Source: Candidatus Zambryskibacteria bacterium RIFCSPLOWO2_12_FULL_39_16 (GTDB taxonomy: Bacteria; Patescibacteriota; Minisyncoccia; Phycocordibacterales; WO2-35-19). From it: 46,730 nt of DNA. The notes under the pieces are model-generated. The model saw nothing but the letters and a program-made list of their open reading frames with translations, was not told where the DNA came from and did not search any database. Positions 14,538-44,281 of this stretch are shown here, piece by piece. Position numbers and translations under genes: made by a program. Every line of letters starts with the position of its first letter. Position 1 is the stretch's first letter. The stretch is from assembly GCA_001824215.1 (NCBI GenBank), contig MHWS01000022.1:1-46730 (forward strand), given 5' to 3'.

Positions 14538-15343
14538 GCTGTCTCTATTATTTTTTTAAATTCTTCAAGATCGCAATTTCTGATGTTTATCCTCGGCACA
14601 GCAAACAATTTTGAAAAATTAAACACTTTTTCTTTTTTAGAAGATACCGCTGATATAAAATCGGCATTTTTTACCAACCTGGTGGTTTCTGAAGTAAAAG
14701 AATCTTTTGAACCAAATGGATAAGCAAATAGAGAAATATTTTTATTCACAATTTCTTCCAATCTTTTTTTGCTCAACATTATTTCTTCTTCTTGCTTCTT
14801 TTTATCCAATTTAGCCATATTGGGATGGGTCATTGTGTGGGCTCCTATATCTATGAGAGGGTGTTCCGCTAGCTTTATTAATTCTTCTTTGGTAAGACAA
14901 CGGCCTCTGTCTTTGATTTCTGTCCCTTTTTCCCAATAAAATGACTCAGGCAATCCAATACTTCCGACTGTCACAAATATTGTAGCTGGAACGCCAAATT
15001 TTTCGAGGATAGGCAACGCTGCATGAAGTGTATCCGCATAGCCATCATCAAATGTAATTGCGACAGAACCACTTTTTATTTGACCATCTGCAAGATCTTG
15101 AATAACCTCGTAAAGTGGCACTATGTTGAAATTCTCTTTCAAATACTTTATTTGTTCTTTGAAGTTTTTTGGAGAAACACAAAGTTTGTGTGGGTCGCTG
15201 CCAACATCTGCCACTCTGTGGTAAATCAGTACTATGTTGCTATTAAAAATTAGTTTTAAAATTTTTTGCAGGAAATATTTATATCTGTTGTGACAAAATT
15301 TAATAGCGTCATATAAGCCAATCTTTTTTAAAAAACTCTTCAT
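14534..15343 (-). CDS. polysaccharide deacetylase (NodB / CE4 family)
   Basis: NodB motifs ITFDDGYADT, GAHTMTHP and FAYPFG. Confidence 0.85.
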   Translation of the reverse strand: MKSFLKKIGLYDAIKFCHNRYKYFLQKILKLIFNSNIVLIYHRVADVGSDPHKLCVSPKNFKEQIKYLKENFNIVPLYEVIQDLADGQIKSGSVAITFDDGYADTLHAALPILEKFGVPATIFVTVGSIGLPESFYWEKGTEIKDRGRCLTKEELIKLAEHPLIDIGAHTMTHPNMAKLDKKKQEEEIMLSKKRLEEIVNKNISLFAYPFGSKDSFTSETTRLVKNADFISAVSSKKEKVFNFSKLFAVPRINIRNCDLEEFKKIIETA

Positions 15344-17584: not shown

Positions 17585-18295
17585 TTAATTTTTATAAAAA
17601 AGAACATTACGGTTATCTACAGCATACTGGCGAAACCCAAAAGAAATCATTTTTTGAATGCATCGGTCGGCATCAGCTCTGGAATAATTGGTGCAATGAT
17701 GATGGAATTCAACAAAAATCTGGCCATATTTTGAAACATTTTCCTTTTTTAGATTTTGTATAAGCTCGAATTCTGCTCCTTCCAAATCTAGTTTTATATA
17801 TTCAATACGCCTCATGTGCAAAAAATTCGGTAATTGTGCCATGCTTACAGATTTTACTTCATATCTTTCAGTCGGGTCGTTCATTATATTTCTATGATTG
17901 TCCAAAAGCGAACCGCTTACATTACTTTTACTTTCATTAAAATATATATTGCCATCAATTGAGCTTATGGCAATTGATTGATGAGTAAATCGCCCGTTTG
18001 TATTTCTCGATATTTTTTTGAGGCTTTCTTCGTGTTTTTTTGTTGGGTCAATACCAATTGACTTAAGTCCATATTTTTTAATCATATATACCGAGAAGTC
18101 TGCATCAAAACCGCATCCGACATCCACAATAATACTTTCTTTATCAAAAACTCCACGATAGAGGCAGTTTGGTGCAACAAAATGAATGTCTTGCATTTTG
18201 CCCATATTTTTTTTATACTCTGTTTTTAATTGCCTAAGAATGTCAAAAATAGACGAAAAAATACTGGCGTATTCTTTTTTTATTTTTTGTACCAT
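17585..18295 (-). CDS. FkbM-family methyltransferase
   Basis: IVDVGCGFDADFS and YIKLDLEGAEFELI motifs. Confidence 0.75.
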   Translation of the reverse strand: MVQKIKKEYASIFSSIFDILRQLKTEYKKNMGKMQDIHFVAPNCLYRGVFDKESIIVDVGCGFDADFSVYMIKKYGLKSIGIDPTKKHEESLKKISRNTNGRFTHQSIAISSIDGNIYFNESKSNVSGSLLDNHRNIMNDPTERYEVKSVSMAQLPNFLHMRRIEYIKLDLEGAEFELIQNLKKENVSKYGQIFVEFHHHCTNYSRADADRCIQKMISFGFRQYAVDNRNVLFYKN

Positions 18296-18296: not shown

Positions 18297-19484
18297 TTAT
18301 CCTAAAAGAGAAAATTCCGGATTGTTTTTCAACAGCAAAGCATCTATAAAAAATTTTGTGGCCCAATTTAACATAGTAAAACTAGCATATTCTCCGCCAA
18401 AAGGATAGGAACCGGCTATACCACCAGTGATTTCTGGATGGGAAGAATTAATAATTTGAGTTTCTTTTATCTGGTCTATAATGCACAAGGCTCTAGACCT
18501 AAAATGTTCCTCGTTTGTTATGTTCCAAATTTTTAGCCACGTAATAGCAATTTGTGCGTCTCCAGTTAAACAGGTGTAATCATCTTTTGATTGCCATTTT
18601 TTATCAAAGGTGCCTGGCAAATAATCAAAATTGTTATTTTTTTCATTTTCATAATATCGAAGTATCTTAAGAGAAGTTTTGTAGGCAGATTGAAATATCT
18701 TGTCTGATTCTAGAAGTGACGCACTCTCAATCAGTCCTTGTATAGTATAGGCAATCAAATGGGTCCATGGTTTGGATGGATTAGAAAGACTTGTATTTTC
18801 AAACCAACCATTTTCATTTTGCTGTGCTAAAACCCATTCAATATTTTTTTCTGCCGCTTCTTTGTATTTTTTGTTGCCAGTCCTTTTATAAACTTCTAAA
18901 AGAGACCACGCCACCCTGGAATGGTAAGTGCGGGCTCCTGCTGTAGTGAATTGTTGCCATGAACCATTATTTTCCTGTATTGACAAGAGCCATTCTGCTG
19001 ATTTGATTACCGCTTTCAGATATTTTTCTTCTCCTGTATGGTCATATAGCGAGCAAAGACCAAGCATAACTTGTCCAGTATTAAAAACTTTTTTTCTTAT
19101 TTGGCCAGAAATGGTTTCCTCTCCGTATGAACCATCATTAAGTTGCTCTTTCAGCTCCCATTCTCCCATTCGCAAAGCCCTCTCTTCAAATTCTTTTATG
19201 CCGCTTTTTTTTGAATAATTTATAAAGGTGGGGATAATATATCCGGTAGTCTCTCTGTATGGCTTGCCCCATGATTTTTTATCAAGATTATATAAGGAAA
19301 GAATTCCGTCGCATTTTGATTCGTCTTGGGCCAAACATAGCCACGCCATAGCCGCTTTTAGGTGAATTTCTTCGTTTGAAGCTTTTCGAGTAGACCTAAG
19401 TTCTGGAAAATTTAAATAAACCAACAGGCTACTTTTAACCTGGTGCATTTTTGATGCTATTTTTCTCAAAAAAACCGATTTCAT
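18297..19484 (-). CDS. QW-repeat (prenyltransferase / terpene-cyclase-like alpha/alpha toroid) protein of unknown function
   Basis: Start re-called at the ATG at 19484 (MKSVFLRK), which forms an ATGA overlap with the stop of the upstream gene. QW-like repeats are SAEWLLSIQENNGSW, IEWVLAQQNENGWF and GEWELKEQLNDGSYG. Confidence 0.55.
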   Translation of the reverse strand: MKSVFLRKIASKMHQVKSSLLVYLNFPELRSTRKASNEEIHLKAAMAWLCLAQDESKCDGILSLYNLDKKSWGKPYRETTGYIIPTFINYSKKSGIKEFEERALRMGEWELKEQLNDGSYGEETISGQIRKKVFNTGQVMLGLCSLYDHTGEEKYLKAVIKSAEWLLSIQENNGSWQQFTTAGARTYHSRVAWSLLEVYKRTGNKKYKEAAEKNIEWVLAQQNENGWFENTSLSNPSKPWTHLIAYTIQGLIESASLLESDKIFQSAYKTSLKILRYYENEKNNNFDYLPGTFDKKWQSKDDYTCLTGDAQIAITWLKIWNITNEEHFRSRALCIIDQIKETQIINSSHPEITGGIAGSYPFGGEYASFTMLNWATKFFIDALLLKNNPEFSLLG

Positions 19485-20167
19485 CTTTTTTGGAATAATA
19501 TACAGGAAATCTGGTGCTTGTCTTCTCGTTCCACTTTTTGGGGAGGTAAGATTATTTTTCCTTCCGTCCAATAATCTCCAGTGAAAAATTGCCAATATTC
19601 TTGCTTTATTAAATAGGCATTATTTTGTTTTTGCCACCTATCCAGATCTTCTCGACAATAAGCTCTTGTTTTATATTTAGGTAGATTTTTTGCAGTTGAA
19701 TCGGGAAGAGAATAAACGTTTGAAACCCCCCTTTTTTCATTATAAGGAAAAGTAAGCACTAAAATTCCTCCATTTTTTAGAAGGGAAAACATTGATTTAA
19801 CTGCCTGGTCGCATTTCTCAATATGCTCCAAAGTACTGACGCACGTGATCATGTCAAAAGTATCTTTTAATTTTGAGTTGGTAATGTCGTCGTTTATGAT
19901 GTGATAATGTCGATTAAACATGCCATCGGTCCAATAGTCTTTAATGTTATCTATTGCGGTCACTTTGCAACCACAATTAGCCATAAGATGTGGTAAAGCT
20001 GTGATTCCTGTGCCAACGTCAAGTATATGTTTAGGATAGTATGTACTAATTTGCTCAAAAATAAACCTATATTCAAGAGGACGTTCATTTGGTTCACCAA
20101 AAAGAGGTTTTTTGTATTCTTTATAATTCAGTCTATTTATAAAAAAATATAAAATTTTTTTTATCAT
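19481..20167 (-). CDS. class I SAM-dependent methyltransferase
   Basis: ILDVGTGITALP motif I, FDMITCVSTLEHI and LKNGGILVLTFPY. Confidence 0.8.
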   Translation of the reverse strand: MIKKILYFFINRLNYKEYKKPLFGEPNERPLEYRFIFEQISTYYPKHILDVGTGITALPHLMANCGCKVTAIDNIKDYWTDGMFNRHYHIINDDITNSKLKDTFDMITCVSTLEHIEKCDQAVKSMFSLLKNGGILVLTFPYNEKRGVSNVYSLPDSTAKNLPKYKTRAYCREDLDRWQKQNNAYLIKQEYWQFFTGDYWTEGKIILPPQKVEREDKHQISCILFQKR

Positions 20168-20176
20168 TTCACTTTG

Positions 20177-20794
20177 TTATTTAATTGCTTCAAGAAAAAA
20201 CATTTGATCAGGACGATTATCTATTGTGTCTATATGTGGGAGTCTACTCTGCAGGTATCCCTTTTTCTCGACGGTAGTAAAGCCAGCTTCTTTGAAAAGT
20301 AAAGCCAAAGTCTCAAAATCATAAAAGTATTTGCAGACTTTATTTCCCGTCGTCTTATATCCATAAAACCAAGAGTTTATTTTATCAGCCATTGTTATGC
20401 CATAAAAACGCTCTCGGTTGCCAGCAAGCTTTTGAAAGAAAAAATCTTTATCCATATTGACATATTTCTTTGAAATTTCAAACAAATCTTGGGTTGCAAA
20501 TCTAGCGATACCTCCACTTTTTAAAACCCTATATACGTCTTTCACTATTATCTCGCCCCTTTCTCGTGAGAAATAGTTTATAGCCGATATACAAATGATG
20601 TTGTCAATTGAGTTAGATGCGAATGGTAATAATTTTTTTTCCAAATCTACATGTATGTCTGCATCTGGATATATATCTACATCTGCAAATGTCTCTACTC
20701 GCACTCCACCGCCACAGAGATTGATGTTTTTCCATTTTTCTCCGAATCCAAAAAGTCTCCATTTGACTAGATAGTAATTCAATTTTCCGCGCAT
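20177..20794 (-). CDS. SAM-dependent methyltransferase (Methyltransf_11-like)
   Basis: IDNIICISAINYF and VYRVLKSGGIARFATQD. Divergent motif I NLCGGG. Confidence 0.65.
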   Translation of the reverse strand: MRGKLNYYLVKWRLFGFGEKWKNINLCGGGVRVETFADVDIYPDADIHVDLEKKLLPFASNSIDNIICISAINYFSRERGEIIVKDVYRVLKSGGIARFATQDLFEISKKYVNMDKDFFFQKLAGNRERFYGITMADKINSWFYGYKTTGNKVCKYFYDFETLALLFKEAGFTTVEKKGYLQSRLPHIDTIDNRPDQMFFLEAIK

Positions 20795-20824: not shown

Positions 20825-22246
20825 TTATTTTACAAGATCTTTCAGAATAGTTTTCATTTTTACTCTATCAGTTTCAATGTATGGAATTTCTTCTTTAAAA
20901 TTAAATTCTGATTTGTCTTTTCTTAATATTTCTAAAATTTTTTCGCTTGTATTAGCGAAACTAAAGAGGTCATTTTTTGCATAGGCTCCAAAAACATCCA
21001 TACTTTCTGCATCTGTAATTATGGGATGCACTTCAAAGACTAGTGCTTCATAAGCCACCGTAGACCAGGGCGTTATAAGAAAGTCCGTATTAAGTAAAAT
21101 ATCAAACAGGGGCATGCTAGAAGATTTCTCTACTTCTATATTAGAGTTACCGGTCCACGCAAATTCTTTGAGAGTTTTTTCTTTAATAATGGGATCTTTT
21201 ATTCTCATGGGATGAAGTCTGACTTGCCAGTGCCAATTTGCGGGAGACCCTCTTACAGCCTCTAAAATATATTGGATTGGGAAGTCTTTATTCGGTAAGG
21301 CAATCAAAATATTTTTGGAACTCCGTTTTTTATCTCCTGTATCCTTATTCGTATTTGATACAAATCGTGATATCCATGGATTGCCTCCAACAAATGCTTG
21401 GTGTTCCGGGTAGACAGCTTCTGACCATTTGTTTATCTCCCGAGCAGATTCCTCTCCCCAACACCACCATAGATGGGGCATGATATCATAACCTCCGGCA
21501 GGTATATTATTCCAAGCTCTATAGAGTCCATGTTGTTCTCCATGTTGGACCTCAACTGTCTTGATGTTAAGTTTTCTGCATGCTCTTATGTAACCCCAGC
21601 CTGTAGGGTGGTAATAGCATTCTAAGAAACAGACTTTCGGGTTAATCTTTTTTAAGATTCTCTCAAATATTTTCTCGTATTCTAAGGTAGCTTCGATATT
21701 ATTTATTATAAAATCTTTGTTTAATTTTATATTTGGGAAGTTGTTTTCCAGATATTTTTCTAGTTTCTCCCAATTTTGTATTTCCACTTTTTGCTTCAAG
21801 CTAAAAATCTTTTCTCTATCTATGAAATAAGTATTACCCCAGACTGGCTTTTTCTTGCTGGAAAGGTCTAGCGTGACTGAATCAACCCCGACCTCTTTCA
21901 AAATTTCTTGCAAGCTATTAGAAAAACGGCTAAAATATTTGTTCTCCACCTGGATTGTTCTCTCCAACCTAGCAATAAGAAAAACCACATCAGTTTCTTT
22001 GTATTTATTTGGGTTTAATTTATATAAAATAAACCCCACATAGATATTCACTTTCTCTACAATTTTTTCAATCAAATTTTTCTTTTTTGCAGGTTCCTCC
22101 CCGGAATTTTTAAATCTGGAATAAAGAATTTTCCACATCTCAAGTCGGATAATAGGCCAGATTTTTAGGTTCTTGTACTCTATCTTAGATATAGGAACGT
22201 TATCCTCAATGTTATTTAATATCCTTATTATTTCTTTATACTGCAT
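20825..22246 (-). CDS. uncharacterised 473-aa protein; candidate CMP-sugar-dependent GT-B transferase (KpsS/KpsC- or sialyltransferase-like HP motif)
   Basis: The ORF is clear but the function is weak. VRLHPMR (an HP motif) and ITPWSTVAYEALVFEVHPI resemble the CMP-binding half of capsule beta-Kdo and sialyl transferases. Based on remembered motifs only. Confidence 0.4.
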   Translation of the reverse strand: MQYKEIIRILNNIEDNVPISKIEYKNLKIWPIIRLEMWKILYSRFKNSGEEPAKKKNLIEKIVEKVNIYVGFILYKLNPNKYKETDVVFLIARLERTIQVENKYFSRFSNSLQEILKEVGVDSVTLDLSSKKKPVWGNTYFIDREKIFSLKQKVEIQNWEKLEKYLENNFPNIKLNKDFIINNIEATLEYEKIFERILKKINPKVCFLECYYHPTGWGYIRACRKLNIKTVEVQHGEQHGLYRAWNNIPAGGYDIMPHLWWCWGEESAREINKWSEAVYPEHQAFVGGNPWISRFVSNTNKDTGDKKRSSKNILIALPNKDFPIQYILEAVRGSPANWHWQVRLHPMRIKDPIIKEKTLKEFAWTGNSNIEVEKSSSMPLFDILLNTDFLITPWSTVAYEALVFEVHPIITDAESMDVFGAYAKNDLFSFANTSEKILEILRKDKSEFNFKEEIPYIETDRVKMKTILKDLVK

Positions 22247-22292
22247 TTTATAAGTAGTGTTTCTTTATTCGTAAATAATGTGTCGTAGATGT

Positions 22293-23105
22293 TCATTTTA
22301 ACAGTTTTGTTTTAATAAACCACAAATATTTCCAAAATCTCTCTTTAAATCTTCTTTTTCTTGCTTTTTTGATAAATCCATTAATATAGTCTGATGTTTT
22401 AGCATCTGCCAGTTGTTTTGCGTAGTCAAAATATCCATAGGCCAGATATATTTTTATGGCGTTCAGAACTTTATCTTCTCCCATGCCCTTTACATATTCT
22501 GGTTTTCTAAAATATAGAGCATCGGTCCAGATAAGTTGTTGACCCCAATATTGCAGTTTCCTAAAAGTTATTAAACTAAATCCTTGATTAGTTATAAAGC
22601 TATCCACATCCTTGAATAGAGGTTGGTTCTTGTAAATAGGTATAAACTCTACTTCGGTTTCAATAGCGATTACATTCTTGAGAGTTTTGATTGAGCCTTT
22701 TAGTACGGGCAGTTCATATCCCTGAATATCTATTTTTAGAACATCTACATCTTTTCCTTCCAAAACATTATCTAGAGTGTCAGTTTCAATCTCTATTTTT
22801 TTAAGTACATCAAACCTGCTTGCTTCATATTCTTCCGGTTCTGGAAATTGTTTTATTAACTCCATATTTGGTTCATAAAAAGACGATACAGTCTGCTTGC
22901 GACAGAGGTTAAATTTTTTCTTGCCTTTGATATCTGAAAGGGCTATTTTAAAAACTTCTAAATCTGGTAAGAAAACCGCTCTGTCGTCTGGTTCAAATGA
23001 AAATATTTTAATATTAAAATCATTCCAGCGTTTGTCTAGCCCTCCACTCGCGCCCACATCCGCTATTGCAAGAGGATCATGTAGAATTAGCTTATTTTCT
23101 TGCAT
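22293..23105 (-). CDS. FkbM-family methyltransferase
   Basis: IADVGASGGL, IFSFEPDD and VLKIDIQGYELPVLKG motifs. Confidence 0.75.
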   Translation of the reverse strand: MQENKLILHDPLAIADVGASGGLDKRWNDFNIKIFSFEPDDRAVFLPDLEVFKIALSDIKGKKKFNLCRKQTVSSFYEPNMELIKQFPEPEEYEASRFDVLKKIEIETDTLDNVLEGKDVDVLKIDIQGYELPVLKGSIKTLKNVIAIETEVEFIPIYKNQPLFKDVDSFITNQGFSLITFRKLQYWGQQLIWTDALYFRKPEYVKGMGEDKVLNAIKIYLAYGYFDYAKQLADAKTSDYINGFIKKARKRRFKERFWKYLWFIKTKLLK

Positions 23106-23926
23106 ATTATTTTTCGCACCTCTTCTAGATCTGAAGGAGTGTCGACTGCTATATTTTCACTTACCACCTCAATCATTTTTATAGGTATTTTATTTTCAAT
23201 AAACCGTAGAGATTCTATTTCTTCGCTATGTTCTAGCAGACCTTTTGGAAGAGAAGCGTATCTTTTCAAAGCTTCAGGCCGAAAACCATATACAGCCACT
23301 ATTTTGAAATATTTAGAAACAAGATTTCTTGGATAAGGAATAGGAAATCTAGAAAAAAACATTGCTTCATTATTATGATTAACCACTACGTTTGGAACGG
23401 TAGTACTGACTAACTCGTGCATTCTTGTGATTTCTGACATTAAATGAACAACCTGAATTGATGGGTCGTCAATCATTGGCTTTATCGCCGCATCTATGAC
23501 TTTAGGATCTATTAAAGGTTCGTCTCCTTGGATATTAATGTAAATATCAGCAGGAATTTTTTTGGCCACTTCTGCTACTCGGTCGGTGCCTGTCGCATGT
23601 CTGGTATTTGTCATTATGTATGGAATTTTTAACTTCTTGCACACTTTAGCTATTCTTTCATCGTCAGTGGCGATGACTGATTCTGTTAATAATTTAGATT
23701 TACAGGCTTGATTATACACCCACCAAATCATCGGCTTGCCACAAATATCAGCCAACGGTTTGCCTGGTAGACGGGTTGAAGTAAATCGAGCCGGAATAAC
23801 ACCGATTATCTTTAGGTTTTTAGCTTTATTTTTCAACGTTTTTAGTTGTTTAACAAAAGCCAATGTAACACATTCTACATTAATTGCAACTAAAAAATTA
23901 CCACGCACTCCAACCGCCATCAACAT
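23087..23926 (-). CDS. KdsB-type cytidylyltransferase (CMP-3-deoxy-manno-octulosonate synthase family, CTP_transf_3)
   Basis: VIPARFTSTRLPGKPLADICGKPMIWWV and NIQGDEPLI motifs. The true start is uncertain: the ORF-track ATG overlaps the SDR stop by 29 nt, and internal GTG (23908) and TTG (23863) are alternatives. Confidence 0.8.
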   Translation of the reverse strand: MLMAVGVRGNFLVAINVECVTLAFVKQLKTLKNKAKNLKIIGVIPARFTSTRLPGKPLADICGKPMIWWVYNQACKSKLLTESVIATDDERIAKVCKKLKIPYIMTNTRHATGTDRVAEVAKKIPADIYINIQGDEPLIDPKVIDAAIKPMIDDPSIQVVHLMSEITRMHELVSTTVPNVVVNHNNEAMFFSRFPIPYPRNLVSKYFKIVAVYGFRPEALKRYASLPKGLLEHSEEIESLRFIENKIPIKMIEVVSENIAVDTPSDLEEVRKIICKKIS

Positions 23927-24662
23927 TCAAAGTTTCCCCTGTTATATATTTTGAGGCATCAGATGAAAGGAAAAGACACGCATTGGCCACGTCGAGCGAA
24001 GACCCCCACTTTCCCTGAGGAGTTCTATCAAGAGTAAATTTATATAAGTCAGTTTTCTTCTTAAAGTTCTCAGCATATGATGTTTCGCAAAAACCGGGGG
24101 CGATAGCATTGACGTTTATATTGTACTCTGACCACTCTGTAGCTAGACATTTAGTTAGGGTAATCATACCCCCTTTAGATGTACCGTAAGCAGCTAATTC
24201 AGGCAGGCCCAACGTCCCTATAATTGATGCGATATTAACAATTTTACCTCTTTTTACAGAAACCATATACCTACCCACTTCTCTACAAAAATAATATACG
24301 CTATTTAGATTAGTATTAATTATCTTATTCCAATCTTCCGTCGTAGTATCAAGAAATCTTTTCCTGAATCGCATACCGGCGTTATTTATAAGCACATCTA
24401 TTTTTTTGAATCTATCTATCGTTTGTTTTACAAACTCAACAACCTCTTGCTCATTGGAGACATCGCCGCAGAAATATAACATACGGCCATCTTCAAACCC
24501 AGCCTCTTTCTTGAGTGTCAGCAAGTCGTCATCATTTCTCGTCATCAAAGCAAGTTTTGCTCCAGATGCGCAAAACAATTTCGCTGTTTCTCGGCCAATA
24601 CCCTTTCCGCTCCCTGTTATGATGCAGACTTTGTTTTTTAATGAGAATTGCTCTTGTAGCAT
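23898..24662 (-). CDS. short-chain dehydrogenase/reductase (FabG-like SDR)
   Basis: ITGSGKGIGRETA, NNAG and YGTSKGG (Y-x3-K) motifs. Confidence 0.85.
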   Translation of the reverse strand: MLQEQFSLKNKVCIITGSGKGIGRETAKLFCASGAKLALMTRNDDDLLTLKKEAGFEDGRMLYFCGDVSNEQEVVEFVKQTIDRFKKIDVLINNAGMRFRKRFLDTTTEDWNKIINTNLNSVYYFCREVGRYMVSVKRGKIVNIASIIGTLGLPELAAYGTSKGGMITLTKCLATEWSEYNINVNAIAPGFCETSYAENFKKKTDLYKFTLDRTPQGKWGSSLDVANACLFLSSDASKYITGETLNVDGGWSAW

Positions 24663-24667
24663 AGAAC

Positions 24668-25804
24668 TTATGTGATTAGATAATTAAAAGCTTCTATTAT
24701 ATAGCTATCCGGCATGTTGCTGTAAACTCCACTCAGTCCAATTTTTTCAGCCAGCACAAATCTCAATCGGTTGTCTTTCCTCTTTTTATCTTTGAGGATA
24801 TTTTCTAGACATTCTTTAATAAGGCGGTCGCGCTTAAATCCAATCTTTTTAGAGTCAACTTTTATCGGTAAACCATATTTTGCCAAGATTGCCTCATGTT
24901 TTTTCAAGACATTATTTTTTTTAGGAAAATATCTTTCTGCCAGAAATGCCGCTCCCACCATGCCAAGTGATACTCCTTCTCCGTGCCTGTATACTTCTTT
25001 AGAAACATCGGTAGATATTTCTATTGAGTGTCCCATAGTGTGCCCATAGTTTAATTTTAGACGTTTATCTTGTTCTCGAGTATCTCCGGAAACATGTTCT
25101 AGTTTTATCTCGACAGTTCGACACATAATATGGAGTAGCTCATCCTGCTTTCTGTTGCATATTGCTTGAGAATTGGAATCAAGATATTCAAACAGTTCTC
25201 TGTCTGAAATAATCGCACACTTTATAATTTCTGCCAATCCGGATATGTAGTTTCTCTCTGACAGAGATTCCAGTAATTCAAGGTCAATTATATTTAATAT
25301 GGGGTGGTAATAATTACCTATTGCGTTAATAGTTTTACCGAAATTTACAGCAACTTTTCCTCCAATACTACTGTCAATCATTCCCATGATAGTTGTTGGG
25401 ACTTGTATGAAGTTGATGCCACGAAGATATGTACTAGCTACAAAACCAGTCAGATCGCCAATGACTCCTCCTCCAATAGCTACGATAGTTGAATCCCGTG
25501 ACAAGTTCTTTTTTTCGAGAAGTGTATAGATATCAACGACTTTGTTTATAGTTTTGTTGTGTTTACCAGATTTCAGCGCATACGTATATACTTCGTATCC
25601 AGAATCTTTTAAGGTAGGGCATATTTTGCCGTAGACCTTGTCTTTAAAAAATGGATCAAAAATTAGCACAACTTTCTTGTTTTTAGTCTTATTGTTCAAA
25701 TTTTCCACCAAACTTTCTGACAATAAATTTCTTCCGACTAATATATTATAACGGCTATCATCCAGTTCTACTTTATAAGTTTTATATATTGTGCCGTTCT
25801 TCAT
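24668..25804 (-). CDS. 3-dehydroquinate synthase family sugar-phosphate cyclase (AroB-like)
   Basis: GGGVIGDLTGFVASTYLRGINFIQVPTT, DSSIGGKVAVN, GLAEIIKCA, RLKLNYGHTMGHSIE and HGEGVSLGM all align with DHQS motifs. The substrate cannot be assigned from sequence alone. Confidence 0.85.
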   Translation of the reverse strand: MKNGTIYKTYKVELDDSRYNILVGRNLLSESLVENLNNKTKNKKVVLIFDPFFKDKVYGKICPTLKDSGYEVYTYALKSGKHNKTINKVVDIYTLLEKKNLSRDSTIVAIGGGVIGDLTGFVASTYLRGINFIQVPTTIMGMIDSSIGGKVAVNFGKTINAIGNYYHPILNIIDLELLESLSERNYISGLAEIIKCAIISDRELFEYLDSNSQAICNRKQDELLHIMCRTVEIKLEHVSGDTREQDKRLKLNYGHTMGHSIEISTDVSKEVYRHGEGVSLGMVGAAFLAERYFPKKNNVLKKHEAILAKYGLPIKVDSKKIGFKRDRLIKECLENILKDKKRKDNRLRFVLAEKIGLSGVYSNMPDSYIIEAFNYLIT

Positions 25805-25897: not shown

Positions 25898-27169
25898 TTA
25901 TTTAATTCTCTCTATACTCCATTTTAAAGGTATGATAGTCAGCGAATTTTCTCTAGTAGTTTCAACAACCGGGAAAGCAAACTTCCCACTGTTGTATATA
26001 GATATGATATTGTGTTCTATAACACGATCCAAATAATTTGTTGCATTTGTTGCAATACCAGCCAGGACTGAATAAGAACCTGAATTTAAGAGTGGGTCAA
26101 GCTTTGCTACTGCTTTATATAAACCTGGTTCTTTTAGCGATTTTTGGTTGTTATCATTGCTCAAACTGAAAAGTATAAATGTGCTTGGGTCAGACGATTT
26201 GAATATTTTTAATACTACGAAAGATTGAAGCTCAACTTTTAGCTGGTACTCGATTTCAATAAAAAATGGTTTTGACATATCCAATTTTGAATTGATGTTT
26301 CCTTCATCATCTCTTATCGTCATTTTTAATATTTCTACTTCATTCTTTTTTCTTTTGGAATCAAAATATTTAGTCTGACCTGTCTGATTTTTTCCTAAAT
26401 ATTTTGCTACGACTTCTTTAGTGTCTCCAATATTTTTTATTCGCCCTTCACTTATATGCATGCATTTTGGACAGAGTTGTTTTACGGCTTCCATATTATG
26501 GCTAACAAAAAGAATAGTGCGACCTTCTTTTTTGGTGATATCTTCCATTTTACCGAGACACTTTTTCTGGAACTCCGCATCTCCTACAGCGAGGACTTCA
26601 TCAACCATTAAAATATCTGGCTCCATATGGGCAGCTACAGAAAAAGCTAGGCGGACATACATGCCACTTGAATAATATTTGACTGGAGTATCTAAGAATT
26701 TGCCTATACCGGCAAACTCAACTATTTCATCAAATTTTTTAGCTATCTCTTTTTTCTTCATACCCAAGATTGCACCATTGAGAAAAATGTTTTCTCGGCC
26801 CGTAAGTTCCGGGTGGAATCCAGTGCCGACTTCGAGGAGAGAGCCCACTTTACCCCGCAAAACAATCTCGCCCTCTGTTGGGGGAGTGATTTGGGAAAGA
26901 ATTTTAAGCAAAGTTGATTTACCGGCGCCGTTGCCGCCGATAATACCGATAACTTCGCCTTTTTGGACAGTAAAATTTACGTTCTTTAATGCCCAGAATT
27001 CTTCTTTTTTTTCAAAGCCGGATACTTGCTTGGCTTTTGTTTTTAGAAAAGAGAAAGGGGACTTAAACACATTCATCAAGACATCACGCAAGGCCACATA
27101 GCCACCCCGTTGATGGGTAATGTTGTATTTCTTCCCAATATTTTTTATTTCTATAATAGGTTTATCCAT
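25898..27169 (-). CDS. polysaccharide ABC exporter ATP-binding protein (Wzt/TagH type) with a ~160-aa C-terminal extension
   Basis: Walker A GGNGAGKST, signature YSSGM, Walker B ILMVDEVLAVGD and H-loop SHN. The C-terminal beta-rich region is consistent with a Wzt_C-type glycan-binding domain. Confidence 0.9.
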   Translation of the reverse strand: MDKPIIEIKNIGKKYNITHQRGGYVALRDVLMNVFKSPFSFLKTKAKQVSGFEKKEEFWALKNVNFTVQKGEVIGIIGGNGAGKSTLLKILSQITPPTEGEIVLRGKVGSLLEVGTGFHPELTGRENIFLNGAILGMKKKEIAKKFDEIVEFAGIGKFLDTPVKYYSSGMYVRLAFSVAAHMEPDILMVDEVLAVGDAEFQKKCLGKMEDITKKEGRTILFVSHNMEAVKQLCPKCMHISEGRIKNIGDTKEVVAKYLGKNQTGQTKYFDSKRKKNEVEILKMTIRDDEGNINSKLDMSKPFFIEIEYQLKVELQSFVVLKIFKSSDPSTFILFSLSNDNNQKSLKEPGLYKAVAKLDPLLNSGSYSVLAGIATNATNYLDRVIEHNIISIYNSGKFAFPVVETTRENSLTIIPLKWSIERIK

Positions 27170-27171: not shown

Positions 27172-27990
27172 CTATATAATATCTGCGAAATATCTTTCGG
27201 TTTTCTTAAAAACATATGTCCCAAATATCATAAGTACTAATGTGCCCCAGAGAGAGATGTTTATGAGTAGCCAATTGATGGGGGCAGTGCCAAGTAAGGC
27301 CGCTCTGGCGCTTTGGATGACGCCCATCATAGGATTTAATGCCAATATAAATGAATACTTTCCAGCAATTGATGCGGGATAAATAACCGGTGTGAGAAAC
27401 AGAAGTATTTGTATAAAAAATGGTAAAGCATACCTCACATCCCTGTATTTAACATTTATGGACGCCAGGAAAAGCCCCAGTCCTATGGAAGCCATAAAAG
27501 TAATAAGGAGAAGCAAGGGTAAAATAAGAAGACCGGAGAGATGTGGCATATATCCGTAATAAAACATAAGGCTTATTAGTATCAAAGTGGCTATAAAAAA
27601 ATCTACCAATTTGGTTATAACGCTTGAAACAGGCAAAATAAGTCTAGGGAAATAAACTTTGGTGATTATGGATTGATTGCTGATAAGAGTCATGCTGGTA
27701 TCTGAAAGAGCGCTGGAGAAAAACTGCCAAAATAAAAGGCCGACGTAAACAAAGATTGGGTAAGGCACTCCATCGGATGGTATTTTGGCCAGTCCGCCGA
27801 AGAATATGGAAAAGACCACCATAGTAATAAAGGGTTGAAATATGGCCCATGCCACTCCTATAAATGTCTGCTTATAGCGCACTTTCAAGTCTCGCCATGT
27901 GAAAAAATATAAAAGCTCTCTATATTGCCAGAGTTCTTTAATATCTTTCAAACTAAAAGTCTTGCGAGGTCTTATAACCGTTGTCTCCAT
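27172..27990 (-). CDS. ABC-2 type polysaccharide exporter permease (Wzm/TagG type)
   Basis: N-terminal LWQYRELLYFFTWRDLKVRYKQTFIGVAWA signature, followed by six hydrophobic segments. Adjacent to the ATPase. Confidence 0.9.
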   Translation of the reverse strand: METTVIRPRKTFSLKDIKELWQYRELLYFFTWRDLKVRYKQTFIGVAWAIFQPFITMVVFSIFFGGLAKIPSDGVPYPIFVYVGLLFWQFFSSALSDTSMTLISNQSIITKVYFPRLILPVSSVITKLVDFFIATLILISLMFYYGYMPHLSGLLILPLLLLITFMASIGLGLFLASINVKYRDVRYALPFFIQILLFLTPVIYPASIAGKYSFILALNPMMGVIQSARAALLGTAPINWLLINISLWGTLVLMIFGTYVFKKTERYFADII

Positions 27991-28026: not shown

Positions 28027-29944
<1,918 letters not shown>

Positions 29945-29973
29945 GAGACAACCTTAGCATATTTGTCTCTTTG

Positions 29974-29982
29974 TGTTAATAT
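29974..29982 (+). promoter_or_regulatory. extended -10 box TGTTAATAT, 7 nt upstream of ATG 29990
   Basis: Lies in the 45-nt divergent gap between gmd and the Wzy_C/TPR gene. Confidence 0.4.
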
Positions 29983-29989
29983 AGGATTT

Positions 29990-32188
29990 ATGTCCAACAA
30001 TCACCTACGTTATATTATTTTAACTGGTTTATTTGTCATACCGTTTGTTCCATTTGTTGTCGCCTCTTCGCTTTTTTTCCCCTTTATTACCGGCAAAGCT
30101 TTTGTTTTCAGACTCATAGTTGAAATAATTTTTGCTACTTGGTTGGTTCTTGCCATAAGAGATGAATCATACCGCCCAAAATTTTCTTGGATATTAGGGG
30201 CTTTAGTTACATTTCTTGTGGTTATGGGTGTGGCTGATTTTTTTGGTGTAAATTCTTTCAAAGCTTTCTGGAGCAATTACGAAAGAATGGAAGGGTATAT
30301 AACTCTTTTGCACCTCGGAGCTCTTTTCTTTGTGATGGGGTCAATGCTGAAAACTCAAGAGGTATGGAACAAACTTTTGGCTACCAGTCTTGGCGCCTCG
30401 GTCATAATGGCGATTTATTCTTTTCTTCAAATTGCCGGCAAGGTCACCATCAATCAAGGCGGAGTGAGAGTAGATGGCACCTTAGGCAATGCCTCTTATC
30501 TTGGCATTTATATGGTTTTCCATATCTTTTTCGCTTTGCTTCTTTTCGTCAGATTTAATAAAGACAAATGGAAAAAGATTTTACTTGCAGTCGTTGCTTT
30601 AATGAATCTAGTCGTCTTATATTTTACAGCAACCAGAGGAGCTATACTGGGTCTTATCGGAGGAATTTTAGTAACTTTTATATATCTTTTATTTAAATCA
30701 GAAAAAGGAGATAAGATAAGAAAAGTTGCCTTGATTGGGATTGTCGGCCTTATCATCTTTATAGGTTTATTTATTGCACTTAAAAATACTTCTTTTGTTC
30801 AAAGGAGCCCGGTACTTAGCAGGTTTGCTTCTCTTTCCTTTTCCGAGCTTGAAACTCAGGGTAGATATTTCGTCTGGCCGATGGCTTGGAAAGGATTTAT
30901 AGAAAAACCTGTGTTGGGCTGGGGACAAGAAGGATTCAATTTTGTATTCAATAAGTATTATGACCCACGAATGTATAATCAAGAACCTTGGTTTGACCGT
31001 GCTCATAGCACTCCTCTTGATTGGCTTATTGCCGGCGGAGCGTTAGGTTTGCTTGCTTACGCTTCTATCTTTTTAGCTTTGCTTTTTTATATTTTTAGAT
31101 CCAAAGGTGAAAATTTGTCTAAAAATGAAAAAGCCATAATGCTCGGGTTAATCTCCGCTTACGTTTTTAATAATCTTTTTGTCTTTGACCAGATAAGTAG
31201 CTACATATTATTTTTCACTGTTATTGCCTATATTCATTCCCATTCTCCAGAAACAAATCTATCCTTGTGGGATAAAATTTCCATAAGAATTAGGAAAATA
31301 TTTGAGAATGATGCAATGAAGCCCGTCATAGAAGCATCAACACTTATTTTGACGGCAGCTGTTATATATTTTGTTATTTATTTGCCGTGGCAACAAAACA
31401 AAAACCTTCTTGCTGTCTTAAAATTAGATAGTGCAGGGACTTTGGAGGCTATAGAAGTTTATACTAAACCACTTGCTGGTTATGGTATGGGCTTTTCAGA
31501 GAGTTTAGAGCACATATCGCAAACGGCTATGGGTATTGCTGCAAATTCAAATGCAAGCACCGAATTAAAACAGCAAGTCTTTAATCTTATAGATAAATCT
31601 TTCGTAAAACAATTGCAAGTTGACCCAGACGATGCTCGCTACAAACTTTTCTATGGAATTTTTCTTTCAAGATTTGGCTGGTATGGTAGAGCTGTGGAGC
31701 AACTTACCGATGCCCAGAAACTTTCTCCTAAGAAACAACAGATATATTTTGAACTTGTTAACAATCTTTTATTCGATGGTAAGACCGATGCAGCTCTGCA
31801 GGATGCCAAGATAGCCTACGAACTTGATCTGTCATATAATCAAACCAAACTTCTGTACGGTCTGGTCCTCCTTGCTTCTGGTGAGAAAACTCTCTCAGAC
31901 CAAATTTTAGAAGGAGTATTAGAATCCGATATCATCTTCAATGATGGATACTTGAATATACTCTTGGCTCTTAAAAAATATGACCAGATAATTGCAGTGG
32001 CAAAAAGACGGATTGAACTTGACCCGGAGAATTTCCAACACAGTATTACTCTCACCGCGGCCTATCTTCAGGTGGGAAATAGGGCAGATGCCATACAGAC
32101 ATTGGAAAATATGATAAAATTGGAGCCTTCATTTAAAGATCAAGGAGAGTACTACATAAATCAAATAAAAGCGGGCAAAAATCCATAA
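29990..32188 (+). CDS. Wzy_C / O-antigen-ligase-family polytopic membrane protein with a C-terminal TPR domain
   Basis: Start re-called at ATG 29990 (MSNNHLRY), which avoids overlap with gmd. Multiple TM helices, YFTATRGAILGL (Wzy_C-type loop) and C-terminal TPR-like repeats (ELDPENFQHSITLTAAYLQVGNRADAIQTLENMIKLEP). Confidence 0.8.
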   Translation: MSNNHLRYIILTGLFVIPFVPFVVASSLFFPFITGKAFVFRLIVEIIFATWLVLAIRDESYRPKFSWILGALVTFLVVMGVADFFGVNSFKAFWSNYERMEGYITLLHLGALFFVMGSMLKTQEVWNKLLATSLGASVIMAIYSFLQIAGKVTINQGGVRVDGTLGNASYLGIYMVFHIFFALLLFVRFNKDKWKKILLAVVALMNLVVLYFTATRGAILGLIGGILVTFIYLLFKSEKGDKIRKVALIGIVGLIIFIGLFIALKNTSFVQRSPVLSRFASLSFSELETQGRYFVWPMAWKGFIEKPVLGWGQEGFNFVFNKYYDPRMYNQEPWFDRAHSTPLDWLIAGGALGLLAYASIFLALLFYIFRSKGENLSKNEKAIMLGLISAYVFNNLFVFDQISSYILFFTVIAYIHSHSPETNLSLWDKISIRIRKIFENDAMKPVIEASTLILTAAVIYFVIYLPWQQNKNLLAVLKLDSAGTLEAIEVYTKPLAGYGMGFSESLEHISQTAMGIAANSNASTELKQQVFNLIDKSFVKQLQVDPDDARYKLFYGIFLSRFGWYGRAVEQLTDAQKLSPKKQQIYFELVNNLLFDGKTDAALQDAKIAYELDLSYNQTKLLYGLVLLASGEKTLSDQILEGVLESDIIFNDGYLNILLALKKYDQIIAVAKRRIELDPENFQHSITLTAAYLQVGNRADAIQTLENMIKLEPSFKDQGEYYINQIKAGKNP

Positions 32189-44280: not shown

Positions 44281-44281
44281 C

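Follow-up and report, generated by a model that had tools for sequence, protein, structure and literature searches.

What does a gene of the DHQS (AroB) family do in a surface-glycan locus of a Zambryskibacteria bacterium (CPR/Patescibacteria), next to an SDR and a cytidylyltransferase? The source organism is supported by proteins of 99-100% identity that carry the name Candidatus Zambryskibacteria. The shikimate pathway is usually absent from CPR bacteria. In the window, which is the whole stretch of DNA analysed (46,730 nucleotides), the five consecutive minus-strand genes of the original prediction were all recovered where it had placed them, and every motif quoted from them is present in the translations (GGGVIGDLTGF, DSSIGGK, RLKLNYGHTMGHSIE, HGEGVSLGM, IPARFTSTRLPGKPL, VRLHPMR and WSTVAYEAL). 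Profile searches gave the same domain calls as before, namely DHQS family, classical SDR, CTP_transf_3 and FkbM. With moderate confidence, we read the locus as an ABC-transporter-dependent (Wzm/Wzt) surface-glycan operon, in which four core genes and an accessory methyltransferase would make and install a CMP-activated, acidic, non-Kdo C7 residue. The usual partners of a CMP-ulosonate pathway had been reported missing, and the Pfam scan of all 38 credible ORFs of the window indeed found no kdsA, kdsD, kdsC, neuB or neuC; the sole Epimerase_2 gene (15340-16452) is of the non-hydrolysing WecB type, not NeuC. There is no DAHP-synthase-type gene in the window either.

The AroB-like enzyme (24668-25804, minus strand; 378 aa) contains the DHQ_synthase and DHQS_C domains (PF01761 and PF24621) and reaches 321 bits with TIGR01357 (aroB; cutoff 305). 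Its nearest solved structures are DHQS (194 bits), while EEVS, DOIS and DDGS obtain 94-110 bits. Members of its clade share 46-82% identity with each other and 28-43% with 72 canonical AroBs, and the clade splits off as a monophyletic bipartition of the NJ tree in all bootstraps (100 of 100). The catalytic and DAHP-binding positions of DHQS are all conserved in the clade, with phosphate, carboxylate and metal ligands of the DHQS type, and several residues occur only there: K81 (E in 99% of canonical AroBs), N164/Y165/H167, N171 and G277. Judged by these patterns, the protein is not a housekeeping AroB and belongs to a separate DHQS-family clade dedicated to glycan loci. Since the DHQS residues are conserved and DHQS is closer than EEVS, DOIS or DDGS, its predicted substrate is one that carries both a carboxylate and a phosphate. 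Sedoheptulose-7-P, once offered as an alternative, is dropped because the DAHP-type pocket is kept. Kdo8P, the other alternative, does not fit DHQS chemistry, as by chemical reasoning its phosphate is one carbon too distant for this elimination.

The SDR (23898-24662, minus strand; 254 aa) matches adh_short_C2 with 217 bits, and its top five NCBIfam matches include the KduD and gluconate-5-dehydrogenase models, both under cutoff. It is 62-80% identical to the neighbour of every AroB-like clade member, across five phyla. It turned out that the AroB-like gene, this specific SDR and a CTP_transf_3 cytidylyltransferase adjoin in all independent loci of the clade (9 of 9), which cover at least six phyla: the window, a second Zambryskibacteria MAG (L007/L009), an unassigned metagenome contig syntenic with the window (L109), Omnitrophica (L004), Brocadiaceae (L005), Deltaproteobacteria (L006), Saganbacteria (L008), a marine locus (L107) and L108. 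Around the 38 canonical AroB genes used as control, neither a related SDR nor a CTP_transf_3 gene occurs within 1.5 kb (0 of 38), and aroK is present in 18 cases; no shikimate gene appears in the Pfam lists of any clade locus. Thus the neighbourhood of the triad is conserved across phyla and is not a chance placement. The cytidylyltransferase slot is filled by non-orthologous types, a KdsB-like enzyme in CPR loci and a PseF-like one in the others. Only 5 nt separate the AroB-like gene from the SDR gene in the window, and in L005 the two overlap; such tight coupling suggests the capture of an unstable intermediate. The cassette appears to convert a shikimate-type precursor to a new CMP-activated acid and to attach it to a surface polysaccharide; no description of this cassette or route was found in the literature searched.

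The KdsB/KpsU-like CTP:acid cytidylyltransferase (minus strand) occupies 23087-23926 as a mechanical ORF of 279 aa, and its start is probably the TTG at 23836 rather than 23926 (likely gene 23087-23836), since this TTG gives MKNKAKNLKIIGV, in line with MKNKSKKLKILGV of a relative. It matches PF02348 with 166 bits and lies over the cutoff of three NCBIfam KdsB models (NF003952, NF009905 and TIGR00466) and under that of two others; among solved structures, E. coli KpsU matches best (1gq9; 200 bits, 43% identity). The Kdo site of E. coli KdsB includes His181, Gln98 and Tyr185 (PMC12199768). The enzyme of the window retains the CTP and Mg motifs and the equivalents of Gln98 and Tyr185, with His181 replaced by Ile, the Gln of LEQLR by Ser and the Lys of VKV by Asn. 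Six Kdo-context enzymes retain K, H, G and Q at the positions compared, and Q.C…IE(I/L)LR prevails among the nearest 120 homologues. This signature is unlike that of every KdsA-linked or solved KdsB compared, which agrees with the earlier view that this is not an ordinary Kdo enzyme; from its residues, the protein is assigned a non-Kdo sugar pocket and a place in a non-Kdo branch.

The last gene of the five (20825-22246, minus strand) encodes a 473-aa protein with no match in Pfam, NCBIfam or PDB sequences. Its AlphaFold model (pLDDT 88, pTM 0.87) has two Rossmann-like domains, and among the matches listed by Foldseek there are only GT-B proteins (Epimerase_2, TagF, TarL, BshA). The family, for which there is no Pfam model, counts 11,435 representative clusters at E<=1e-3, with Q234-H235, H345-P346, T392, S395 and E400 invariant. 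On this confident model, the protein is taken as a GT-B enzyme that belongs to a large family and has an RxHP…STVxxE nucleotide site. Ulosonic-acid gene neighbourhoods were seen in 12 of 16 genome loci, and relatives of the protein adjoin kdsA/kdsB/HAD, kdsD or neuB-like genes or wzm/wzt. For example, a Saccharibacteria homologue (L001/L010) has kdsA, kdsB and a HAD phosphatase gene as neighbours, and the adjacency to wzm/wzt is seen in the window, L009, L011, L023 and L109. Some members are fused to TPR, methyltransferase, GT2 or radical-SAM modules; P0348 (1583 aa) combines the domain with radical-SAM, TPR, methyltransferase and GH88/GH127-like ones. In other phyla, a distant homologue (hhalign E 2e-5) with shared HG / RVHP / SSTVxxEAL motifs is found upstream of the cassette. 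The original prediction of a CMP-sugar transferase therefore stands in part: the GT-B model with an HP-type nucleotide site and the relatives near CMP-ulosonic-acid synthesis genes speak for it, while membership in GT99/GT107 was rejected, as the QXXXD nucleophile motif is not conserved. WbbB and KpsC are absent among the 50 fold matches listed for the model.

For the chemistry, the precursor would be a DAHP-like 3-deoxy-2-ulosonate 7-phosphate. In L109, a 313-aa protein encoded inside the module carries GPC, KSRT, DPSH and SD..Q motifs and has DAHP synthases as its only family matches, being very divergent; this DAHP-synthase-type enzyme could be the source there. In L108, the 4-hydroxy-2-oxovalerate-aldolase-like (pyruvate-aldolase-like) and KDG/KDGal-kinase-like genes directly upstream of the module could serve instead. 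The AroB-like enzyme would then perform a DHQS-type sequence, namely NAD(P)+-dependent transient oxidation at C5 followed by beta-elimination of the C7 phosphate, and the SDR would act as ketoreductase on the carbonyl at the former C6 of DAHP. The product that we prefer would be 3,7-dideoxy-hept-2-ulosonic acid, a 7-deoxy "mini-Kdo"; a quinate-like carbocycle, its isomer, would arise if the aldol ring closure is completed. The KdsB-like enzyme would attach CMP at the hydroxyl, tertiary or anomeric, next to the carboxylate, and the GT-B enzyme would pass the residue from the CMP donor to the glycan.

The carbocyclic version is that of the original prediction, in which DAHP becomes 3-dehydroquinate, then quinate or epi-quinate by the SDR, then CMP-quinate at the tertiary C1 hydroxyl, to be installed by the 473-aa protein. 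The enol-pyranose intermediate of DHQS cyclises spontaneously, and since all DHQS residues are kept, the default product is dehydroquinate and not an open or pyranose deoxy-ulosonate. Besides, the DAHP-synthase-type and DHQS-type genes of L109 copy the first two shikimate steps in one module, quinate resembles a beta-ulosonate at C1 (axial OH, equatorial COOH), and the loss of His181 and of the LEQLR Gln fits a substrate without the Kdo side chain. However, CMP-quinate is awkward as a transfer donor because its saturated tertiary carbon, next to a carboxylate and without ring oxygen, forms no oxocarbenium-like state and does not support SN2 transfer, and the known pseudo-glycosyltransferases require an allylic donor such as GDP-valienol. 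The Kdo and nonulosonate contexts of the 473-aa relatives, where ordinary ketosidic transfer applies, and the AroB-like/SDR coupling also argue against this version, which we consider unlikely.

It is quite improbable that the 473-aa protein is a TagF/TagB-type phosphotransferase with a CDP-linked donor, or a NeuC/LegG-type NDP-sugar 2-epimerase/hydrolase, and that another enzyme uses the CMP product. UDP-GlcNAc 2-epimerases, TagF and TarL do lead its Foldseek matches, the family gives weak Pfam matches to Glyphos_transf (9 of 24) and Epimerase_2 (8 of 24), one member is named "CDP-glycerol glycerophosphotransferase family" at NCBI, and many relatives adjoin neuB, where a NeuC-like enzyme is also expected. 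Yet the same 38-ORF scan found neither a TagD-, TarI- or TarJ-type gene nor a kinase for a CDP donor in the window, a bona fide WecB is already present, and the pure Kdo pathway around L001 needs no epimerase. The contiguous HP, instead of HxNP, is the sialyl/Kdo/TagF form, and the GT2, TPR and methyltransferase fusions fit an assembly enzyme. In Tannerella, the genetically proven Pse/Leg transferases too are TagB-like GT-B proteins that carry an HP motif (PMC5420450).

There is a slim chance that the AroB-like enzyme and the SDR act on another substrate, such as a 3-deoxy-ulosonate phosphate of other stereochemistry or greater length, or that their product is a non-glycosidic substituent, in non-CPR loci perhaps a side group on a nonulosonic acid. 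In L008, neuB and GNAT acetyltransferases cluster with the cassette, the L005 and L108 clusters hold two cytidylyltransferases, and a substrate other than DAHP could explain both the clade changes near the N162 loop (N164, Y165, H167) and the strong divergence of the DAHP-synthase-like partner; against this, neuB is absent from the window, L007, L109 and L107, where the cassette stands alone, the ligands of the enzyme are those of DHQS, and the misplaced phosphate again disfavours Kdo8P. Least probable of all is an ordinary Kdo cap, with Kdo from kdsA/kdsC/kdsD elsewhere activated by the KdsB-like enzyme and added by the 473-aa protein, and with the AroB-like enzyme and SDR as passengers or housekeeping genes: the scores over three of the five matched KdsB models, the identity to KpsU and the Saccharibacteria neighbourhood favour it, but it is at odds with the linkage in nine of nine clade loci against none of 38 canonical ones, the pocket signature, the adjacency kept with two cytidylyltransferase types and the clade loci free of shikimate genes.

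In the preferred reading, the non-Kdo residue would be exported on its glycan by the adjacent transporter. The gene of the ATPase Wzt (25898-27169, minus strand; ABC_tran 85 bits) immediately precedes the module in the window, L007 and L109, and the C-terminal carbohydrate-binding domain of Wzt scores 33.5 bits with Wzt_C (cutoff 30.4). The ABC-2 permease partner, Wzm (27172-27990, minus strand; ABC2_membrane 61 bits), is syntenic in L007 with 87% identity. The FkbM-family methyltransferase (22293-23105, minus strand; 270 aa; PF05050 66 bits, TIGR01444 50 bits) had been counted as a module member; homologues are present in the module of L109 (38% identity) and L004 (32%), but the gene is missing at that position in L007, which makes it a semi-conserved accessory. 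After the 473-aa gene, a minus-strand block (18297-20794) encodes two class-I methyltransferases (20177-20794 and 19481-20167) and an (alpha/alpha)6-barrel-like protein (18297-19595), and both L007 and L109 keep this order, at 47-71% identity. After transfer, FkbM and the adjacent methyltransferases would modify the residue, with FkbM perhaps O-methylating it or the glycan terminus.

Compared with known systems, the R343-L-H-P and S395-T-V-x-x-E400 motifs of the 473-aa protein show the same spacing as the CMP site S271-S272-V273…E276 of KrkA, a GT140 enzyme (PMC12887879). This nucleotide-site motif is common in outline to TagF-type phosphotransferases and UDP-GlcNAc 2-epimerases. The TPR-methyltransferase and GT2 fusions of the family resemble known terminator-polymerase proteins. 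WbbB of Klebsiella O12 and Raoultella terrigena adds a beta-Kdo cap, which is recognised there by the Wzt carbohydrate-binding domain; by this analogy and the gene order, the residue transferred here would most likely be a chain-terminating, probably non-reducing-end cap, which the Wzt carbohydrate-binding domain would read.

The five genes under study are consecutive open reading frames on the minus strand of the window, and each of the motifs quoted in the original prediction was found in their translations. They encode an AroB-like protein (24668-25804; DHQ_synthase and DHQS_C domains, TIGR01357 aroB), a classical SDR (23898-24662; profile search), a cytidylyltransferase (23087-23926 as ORF, with a probable TTG start at 23836; CTP_transf_3), an FkbM methyltransferase (22293-23105; PF05050 with 66.2 bits against a cutoff of 22.7, TIGR01444 with 50.5 against 37.7) and a 473-aa protein (20825-22246) without match in Pfam, NCBIfam or the PDB sequences. 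For the first four, the families named beforehand were borne out by profile searches against Pfam and NCBIfam. Deposited proteins with 99-100% identity come from Candidatus Zambryskibacteria (CPR/Patescibacteria) and are named “3-dehydroquinate synthase” or “hypothetical protein”.

The genes are part of a densely packed run on the minus strand (about 29.9 to 11.6 kb of the window). It opens with a GDP-mannose 4,6-dehydratase, a GDP-fucose-synthase-like gene and the exporter pair Wzm and Wzt, the latter with a carbohydrate-binding domain at its C-terminus. Then come the five study genes, two methyltransferases and an (alpha/alpha)6-barrel-like protein, and the run closes with a second FkbM gene, GT4 enzymes, WecB and a deacetylase. 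The whole is an ABC-transporter-dependent glycan locus. We scanned all other credible ORFs of the 46.7 kb, and the window indeed contains no kdsA, kdsC, kdsD, neuB or neuC, while its sole Epimerase_2 gene is of the non-hydrolysing WecB type.

Besides, six methyltransferases are encoded in the locus (FkbM type at 11625-12329, 17585-18295 and 22293-23105; class I at 4522-5160, 19481-20167 and 20177-20794), which suggests a heavily O-methylated glycan. The (alpha/alpha)6-barrel-like protein (18297-19595, minus strand; 432 aa) has weak matches to pectate lyase, GH127, GH88, LanC and squalene cyclase; its gene is syntenic in a second Zambryskibacteria genome (L007) and in a metagenome contig (L109), and in the 1583-aa protein P0348 it is fused to a 473-aa-type domain. 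The TTG start of this ORF overlaps the upstream gene by 115 nt and the relatives have about 390 aa, so the true start is probably later. Divergent from the glycan operon, a membrane protein of 798 aa is encoded at 29792-32188 on the plus strand, which is O-antigen-ligase-like (Wzy_C) and ends in TPR repeats; similar proteins next to Wzm/Wzt have 738 aa in L007 and 818 aa in a Paenibacillus locus (L106), and the protein may attach the exported glycan to an anchor in monoderm-like cells. The plus-strand ORF at 5202-6125 encodes a 307-aa nucleotide-sugar-dehydrogenase-like protein; of the UDP-glucose/GDP-mannose dehydrogenase family it matches only the central domain and the later part of the N-terminal one, and it may be truncated or a fragment. 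An IS200/Y1-type transposase-like ORF is found at 43559-44227 (minus strand), and the G+C content falls to 0.29 at 44001-46000, at the end of the window.

The AroB-like protein stands apart from the housekeeping AroBs. It passes the aroB model TIGR01357 by a small margin (321.3 bits; cutoff 305), and its relatives in a large protein database, which are 50-76% identical, come from Omnitrophica, Brocadiaceae, Ignavibacteriae, Deltaproteobacteria and Saganbacteria. Its identity to solved 3-dehydroquinate synthases (DHQS) and to 72 ordinary metagenomic AroBs is 28-43%. The 24 sampled members of its clade form one neighbour-joining bipartition in 100 of 100 bootstraps. We used a custom bipartition test for this purpose, since the canonical AroBs are themselves deeply split and a UPGMA two-cluster test is unsuited. 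The canonical controls came from a metagenome locus scan with the clade alignment, which returned at least 80 loci; the conserved patterns matched ordinary AroBs, and none of the loci listed contained a clade member.

All catalytic, metal, phosphate and carboxylate-binding positions of DHQS are kept, both in the clade and in the 72 canonical AroBs. We take these positions to be R130, D146, K152, N162, E194, K197, K250, R264, N268, H271, H275, H287 and K356 of the Aspergillus nidulans enzyme, and the numbers were assigned to the AroB-like protein by motif. At position 81 the clade has Lys instead of the NAD-ribose Glu found in 99% of AroBs. Asn164, Tyr165 and His167 of the clade lie in the loop after the phosphate-binding Asn (N162) and are almost absent from ordinary AroBs, as are two further clade residues, Asn171 and Gly277.

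When the cyclase was compared with solved structures of DHQS, EEVS, DDGS and DOIS type, DHQS turned out to be nearest by score, with 194 bits against 94-110 bits for the sedoheptulose-7-P and glucose-6-P cyclases. Because the carboxylate-binding positions are kept and the scores to these cyclases are far lower, the substrate should be a 3-deoxy-2-ulosonate phosphate of DAHP type; DAHP itself is made by E. coli. Sedoheptulose-7-P and a Kdo8P-like compound had been offered as alternative substrates, and both were rejected: the former because of the retained carboxylate-binding pair and the scores much nearer to DHQS, the latter on chemical grounds, as its phosphate is gamma and not beta to the oxidised carbon. 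A glycerol-1-phosphate dehydrogenase feeding a CDP-glycerol route was rejected too (33 bits for G1PDH vs 321 for aroB), and a paper on capsules in which DHQS is named had no bearing on the locus.

To read the clade in its genomic setting, we used the window, the second Zambryskibacteria genome (L007/L009), the contigs L109-L111 and loci from Omnitrophica (L004), Brocadiaceae (L005), Deltaproteobacteria (L006), Saganbacteria (L008), a marine source (L107) and one further cassette locus (L108). In every readable clade locus, the gene after the AroB-like one encodes an SDR with 62-80% identity to that of the window, and a CTP_transf_3 gene flanks the pair. Of the ordinary AroB loci, 38 extend 1.5 kb or more to either side; a related SDR or CTP_transf_3 gene is nearby in none of them and aroK in 18, while the Pfam lists of the clade loci include neither aroK nor other shikimate genes. 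The AroB-like/SDR/cytidylyltransferase triad is a conserved neighbourhood, and both this linkage and the separation of the clade argue against an ordinary AroB placed here by chance. The cytidylyltransferase slot is filled by two non-orthologous types, KdsB/KpsU-like in the CPR loci and L107 and PseF-like elsewhere, the latter with 220 aa and far below the PseF cutoff. Such a non-orthologous replacement with adjacency kept argues for functional coupling to CMP activation.

The cytidylyltransferase of the window matches five KdsB models of NCBIfam and passes the cutoff in three of them (for instance, NF003952 with 281 vs 193 and TIGR00466 with 166 vs 155), its best solved structure is the E. 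coli capsule enzyme KpsU (1gq9, 200 bits), and the CTP/Mg motifs (PAR..S.R.PGK, QGDEP, VDT) are intact. We aligned its pocket, together with that of the L007 protein, to four solved KdsB/KpsU enzymes and two KdsB proteins encoded next to kdsA (L001 from Saccharibacteria, and L008). In the window and L007 proteins, His181 is replaced by Ile, Gly183 by Ala, the Gln of LEQLR by Ser and the Lys of VKV by Asn, four residues which are invariant in the solved and KdsA-linked enzymes; the equivalents of Gln98 and Tyr185 are kept. His181, Gln98 and Tyr185 belong to the Kdo site of E. coli KdsB (PMC12199768). The independent AroB-linked KdsB-like protein of L107 reads Q.P…IELLR, and most of the 120 nearest homologues, Firmicutes proteins among them, read Q.C…IE(I/L)LR. 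Given the pocket substitutions and these homologue signatures, the enzyme belongs, judged by its sequence, to a KdsB branch activating something other than Kdo. The KdsB-type identity originally proposed thus holds for the profile scores and the CTP/Mg motifs, but not for the Kdo-site residues, nor for the partner genes, as kdsA, kdsC and kdsD do not accompany the gene in the 46.7-kb window.

The probable TTG start at 23836 reproduces the N-terminus of the closest relative. Both a 279-aa database entry and the mechanical ORF start 90 nt before it (window 23837-23926, minus strand); the 30 extra residues of the entry have no counterpart in relatives, and this region overlaps the end of the SDR gene.

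Firmicutes, which have no LPS, carry KdsB-like genes of the Q.C…IE(I/L)LR type next to a gene for a 4-hydroxy-2-oxovalerate-aldolase-like protein of about 530 aa (L105:9001-12382, Trichococcus shcherbakoviae; L106:7389-9732, Paenibacillus rubinfantis). A KDG-kinase-like gene is also found in the Trichococcus locus and in L108:4621-8181, and the Paenibacillus locus contains Wzm/Wzt and a Wzy_C protein as well. These loci look like another route, so far undescribed, by which a 3-deoxy-2-ulosonic acid is made and activated with CMP.

Two related loci bear on the supply of the precursor. L109 is syntenic with the window from Wzt to the GT4 gene and has an extra 313-aa gene between those of the FkbM enzyme and the cytidylyltransferase. 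The only family matches of its product are class I-beta DAHP synthases, weakly (30 bits, E 2.5e-7), and it contains four motifs known from metal-dependent DAHP synthases, GPC, KSRT, DPSH and SD..Q. The spacing K-x-R-T is that of DAHP synthases, whereas KdsA of L001 has the longer K-x-x-R-T-S, a difference which we take to separate the two families. In L108, genes resembling 4-hydroxy-2-oxovalerate aldolase and 2-keto-3-deoxygluconate kinase directly precede the cassette, and the pair would assemble a 2-keto-3-deoxy acid and phosphorylate it. L109 and L108 alike suggest that a DAHP-like substrate is produced expressly for the pathway. The window has no precursor gene of either kind, DAHP-synthase-like or aldolase plus kinase. 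In the Saganbacteria locus (L008:12778-13800), a 340-aa protein with a transaldolase/fructose-6-phosphate-aldolase domain and a CBS domain is encoded between the AroB-like cassette and a kdsB-kdsA pair, which could be an unconventional sugar-phosphate source for ulosonate synthesis.

For the 473-aa protein, an AlphaFold model built with 24 homologues (pLDDT 88, pTM 0.87) has two Rossmann-like domains. All of the 50 Foldseek matches listed are GT-B proteins (UDP-GlcNAc 2-epimerases, TagF, TarL, BshA), none clearly ahead, and WbbB and KpsC are not among them; the search confirms the GT-B fold and does not separate GT-B subfamilies. Searches of the protein and its profile against PDB chains gave nothing meaningful, and the Pfam matches of the family are weak (Glyphos_transf, Epimerase_2, Capsule_synth). 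UDP-GlcNAc 2-epimerases are the top Foldseek matches (E 5e-10, TM 0.4-0.5) and PF02350 is matched weakly in 8 of 24 members; a separate WecB is encoded in the window, and the family also occurs in pure Kdo contexts. TagF and TarL follow with Foldseek E values of about 4e-8, and PF04464 is matched weakly in 9 of 24 members (best E 5.5e-5), not including the window protein; TagD and TarI/TarJ genes are absent from the window. PF05159 is matched weakly in 3 of 24 members.

Invariant in the family are Q234-H235, H345-P346, T392, S395 and E400. The segments R343-L-H345-P346 and S395-T396-V397-x-x-E400 have the spacing of S271-S272-V273…E276 in KrkA, a Kdo transferase in which CMP is contacted by the (K/R)xHP motif, S271/S272, V273 and E276 (PMC12887879), though this HP…S-V-E outline is not unique to CMP binders. 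QXXXD, which in retaining beta-Kdo transferases provides the nucleophilic Asp and the carboxylate-binding Gln (PMC12887879), is not conserved after the first strand of the C-terminal domain, where the column reads PNKDF, TSMPY or QPIEP. The resemblance to CMP-sugar transferases first noticed in the HP and Ser motifs therefore extends to a GT-B protein with a (K/R)xHP…S-V-E site, but not to QXXXD or to WbbB and KpsC among the 50 matches.

The family is large, with 11,435 representative clusters in the profile search at E<=1e-3 and 2,720 at E<=1e-30. A genome locus scan with a 15-sequence alignment gave 16 loci from species-representative genomes, which include kdsA, kdsB and a HAD phosphatase gene in Saccharibacteria, and neuB-like genes, with or without a cytidylyltransferase, in 9. 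The gene of the relative comes immediately after wzm/wzt in L009 and in L023, and in L011 it follows wzt at a short distance. In other phyla, proteins of about 640 aa whose genes immediately precede the PseF-like/AroB-like/SDR genes are distantly homologous (hhalign E 2e-5) and share the HG, RVHP and SSTVxxEAL motifs. In longer family members, 473-aa-type domains are fused to TPR and methyltransferase, to TPR and GT2, or to radical-SAM, TPR, methyltransferase and GH88/GH127-like domains, the last of which mirrors the separate genes following the 473-aa gene in the window. Taken together, the genomic context points to ulosonic-acid transfer. In Tannerella, the transfer of Pse/Leg is genetically proven for TagB-like GT-B proteins which have about 445 aa and an HP motif (PMC5420450). 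We conclude that the 473-aa protein probably acts like a CMP-ulosonate transferase outside GT99, GT107 and GT140.

In the Saccharibacteria loci, a homologue is accompanied by a radical-SAM enzyme, an SDR and kdsA, kdsB and HAD phosphatase genes (L001:5837-11416, the same as L010); the metagenome contig L003 has the same radical-SAM/SDR/homologue setting at 5788-11392, where a kdsD-type SIS isomerase is found nearby instead. A modified Kdo may therefore be present on cells which have no outer membrane.

Related modules thus bring a dedicated supply of a DAHP-type precursor; to this come a DHQS-type enzyme, its obligate SDR partner and, in the window, a cytidylyltransferase with an altered pocket. 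In the proposed pathway, the AroB-like enzyme would oxidise C5 and then eliminate the C7 phosphate, and the SDR would reduce the carbonyl formed at the old C6. If the intermediate were caught before ring closure, the product would be a 3,7-dideoxy-hept-2-ulosonic acid; if the aldol closure were completed, it would be a quinate-like carbocycle, both C7H12O6. The gene of the GT-B transferase lies beside Wzt with its carbohydrate-binding domain, and we propose, from gene order and the analogy with the WbbB beta-Kdo cap read by Wzt, that the 473-aa enzyme would cap the glycan and the Wzt domain would read the cap.

We tentatively prefer the deoxy-ulosonate, at clearly less than even chances. Elsewhere the transferase family occurs in settings of Kdo or nonulosonate synthesis, the AroB-like gene is closely linked to that of the SDR, and in L108 a kinase phosphorylation followed by elimination reads naturally as terminal deoxygenation. 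The carbocycle is rather unlikely: the unaltered catalytic set and the spontaneous cyclisation known for the DHQS intermediate speak for it, but its saturated tertiary carbon without ring oxygen would be a very poor transfer donor, which also favours the deoxy-ulosonate. Slightly more doubtful still is the full claim that bacteria of many phyla convert DAHP to CMP-quinate or an epimer, which a novel GT-B family then incorporates in surface glycans; if true, this would be the first nucleotide-activated saturated carbasugar in glycan assembly and would need new transfer chemistry. Other outcomes take up the rest of the probability.

A CMP-activated acid sugar with an HP-type GT-B transferase is known in kind, and the system would be categorically new only if the carbocycle were confirmed. 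CMP-activated sugars comprise Kdo, sialic, pseudaminic and legionaminic acids and Kdn; if the pathway is right they would gain a C7 member through an undescribed route, with DAHP-synthase-like and DHQS-like enzymes recruited to glycan synthesis. In the literature searched, outside which most subscription journals lie, we found neither a link of the DHQS family to cytidylyltransferases, to the synthesis of ulosonic acids such as nonulosonates or heptulosonates, or to glycan loci nor one between pyruvate aldolases and cytidylyltransferases. Public annotations call the cassette genes “3-dehydroquinate synthase” and “CMP-Kdo synthetase”. If the pathway is true, thousands of such genes in uncultured lineages (CPR, Omnitrophota, Brocadiaceae, Saganbacteria and others) would be mis-annotated, and metabolic reconstructions that count them among shikimate or LPS genes would be in error. 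Very little is known of CPR envelopes, and the pathway would be a first concrete hypothesis on their surface chemistry. The 473-aa family (about 11,000 representative clusters, no Pfam match) would gain a functional handle as a candidate new glycosyltransferase family.

Compared with known systems, the AroB-like enzyme shares the catalytic, metal, phosphate and carboxylate residues of AroB (EC 4.2.3.4), and in L109 a partner of class I-beta DAHP-synthase type. It differs by its separate clade with 28-43% identity, the change of Glu81 to Lys and the altered N162 loop, and its gene is never next to aroK but always beside an SDR and a cytidylyltransferase in glycan loci; CPR bacteria generally lack aromatic amino-acid synthesis. 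The carbasugar cyclases EEVS, DDGS, EVS and DOIS (GDP-valienol, with the pseudo-glycosyltransferase VldE) likewise place a DHQS-family enzyme before a nucleotidyltransferase and a GT-B protein. However, they use sedoheptulose-7-P or glucose-6-P and have no carboxylate-binding pair, which the AroB-like protein keeps, and carbasugars are activated as a 1-phosphate with an NDP group, whereas the KdsB-type enzyme here would form a CMP monoester. Under the preferred deoxy-ulosonate reading, there would also be an analogy with NDP-hexose 4,6-dehydratase plus 4-ketoreductase, in which transient NAD oxidation, beta-elimination at the terminal carbon and ketoreduction by an SDR give a terminal methyl; in the window, phosphate and not water would leave, the fold is DHQS-like and not SDR, and the substrate would be a free ulosonate phosphate and not a nucleotide sugar.

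In Raoultella terrigena and Klebsiella pneumoniae O12, a beta-Kdo cap added by WbbB (GT99) is read by the carbohydrate-binding domain of Wzt. With this CMP-Kdo terminator system (KdsA/KdsC/KdsB, WbbB) the window shares the ABC-dependent locus, a KdsB-family enzyme, a GT-B protein with a (K/R)xHP…SS..E site and Wzt with its C-terminal domain. It differs in having the AroB-like enzyme and SDR instead of kdsA/kdsC/kdsD, in the loss of His181 and the LEQLR Gln, and in a transferase without conserved QXXXD whose 50 listed fold matches do not include WbbB or KpsC. Like the HP-motif CMP-ulosonate transferases of GT38/52/80/99/107/118/140 (PMC12887879), the 473-aa family has its genes beside those of CMP-ulosonic-acid synthesis. 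It shares with the Tannerella forsythia Pse/Leg transferases (Tanf_01245, TFUB4_00887; PMC5420450) a GT-B protein of about 445-475 aa, a weak likeness to TagB/TagF and the HP motif, a likeness drawn from description; Q234-H235 of the N-terminal domain has no described counterpart there, and the donor here would be a new C7 acid.
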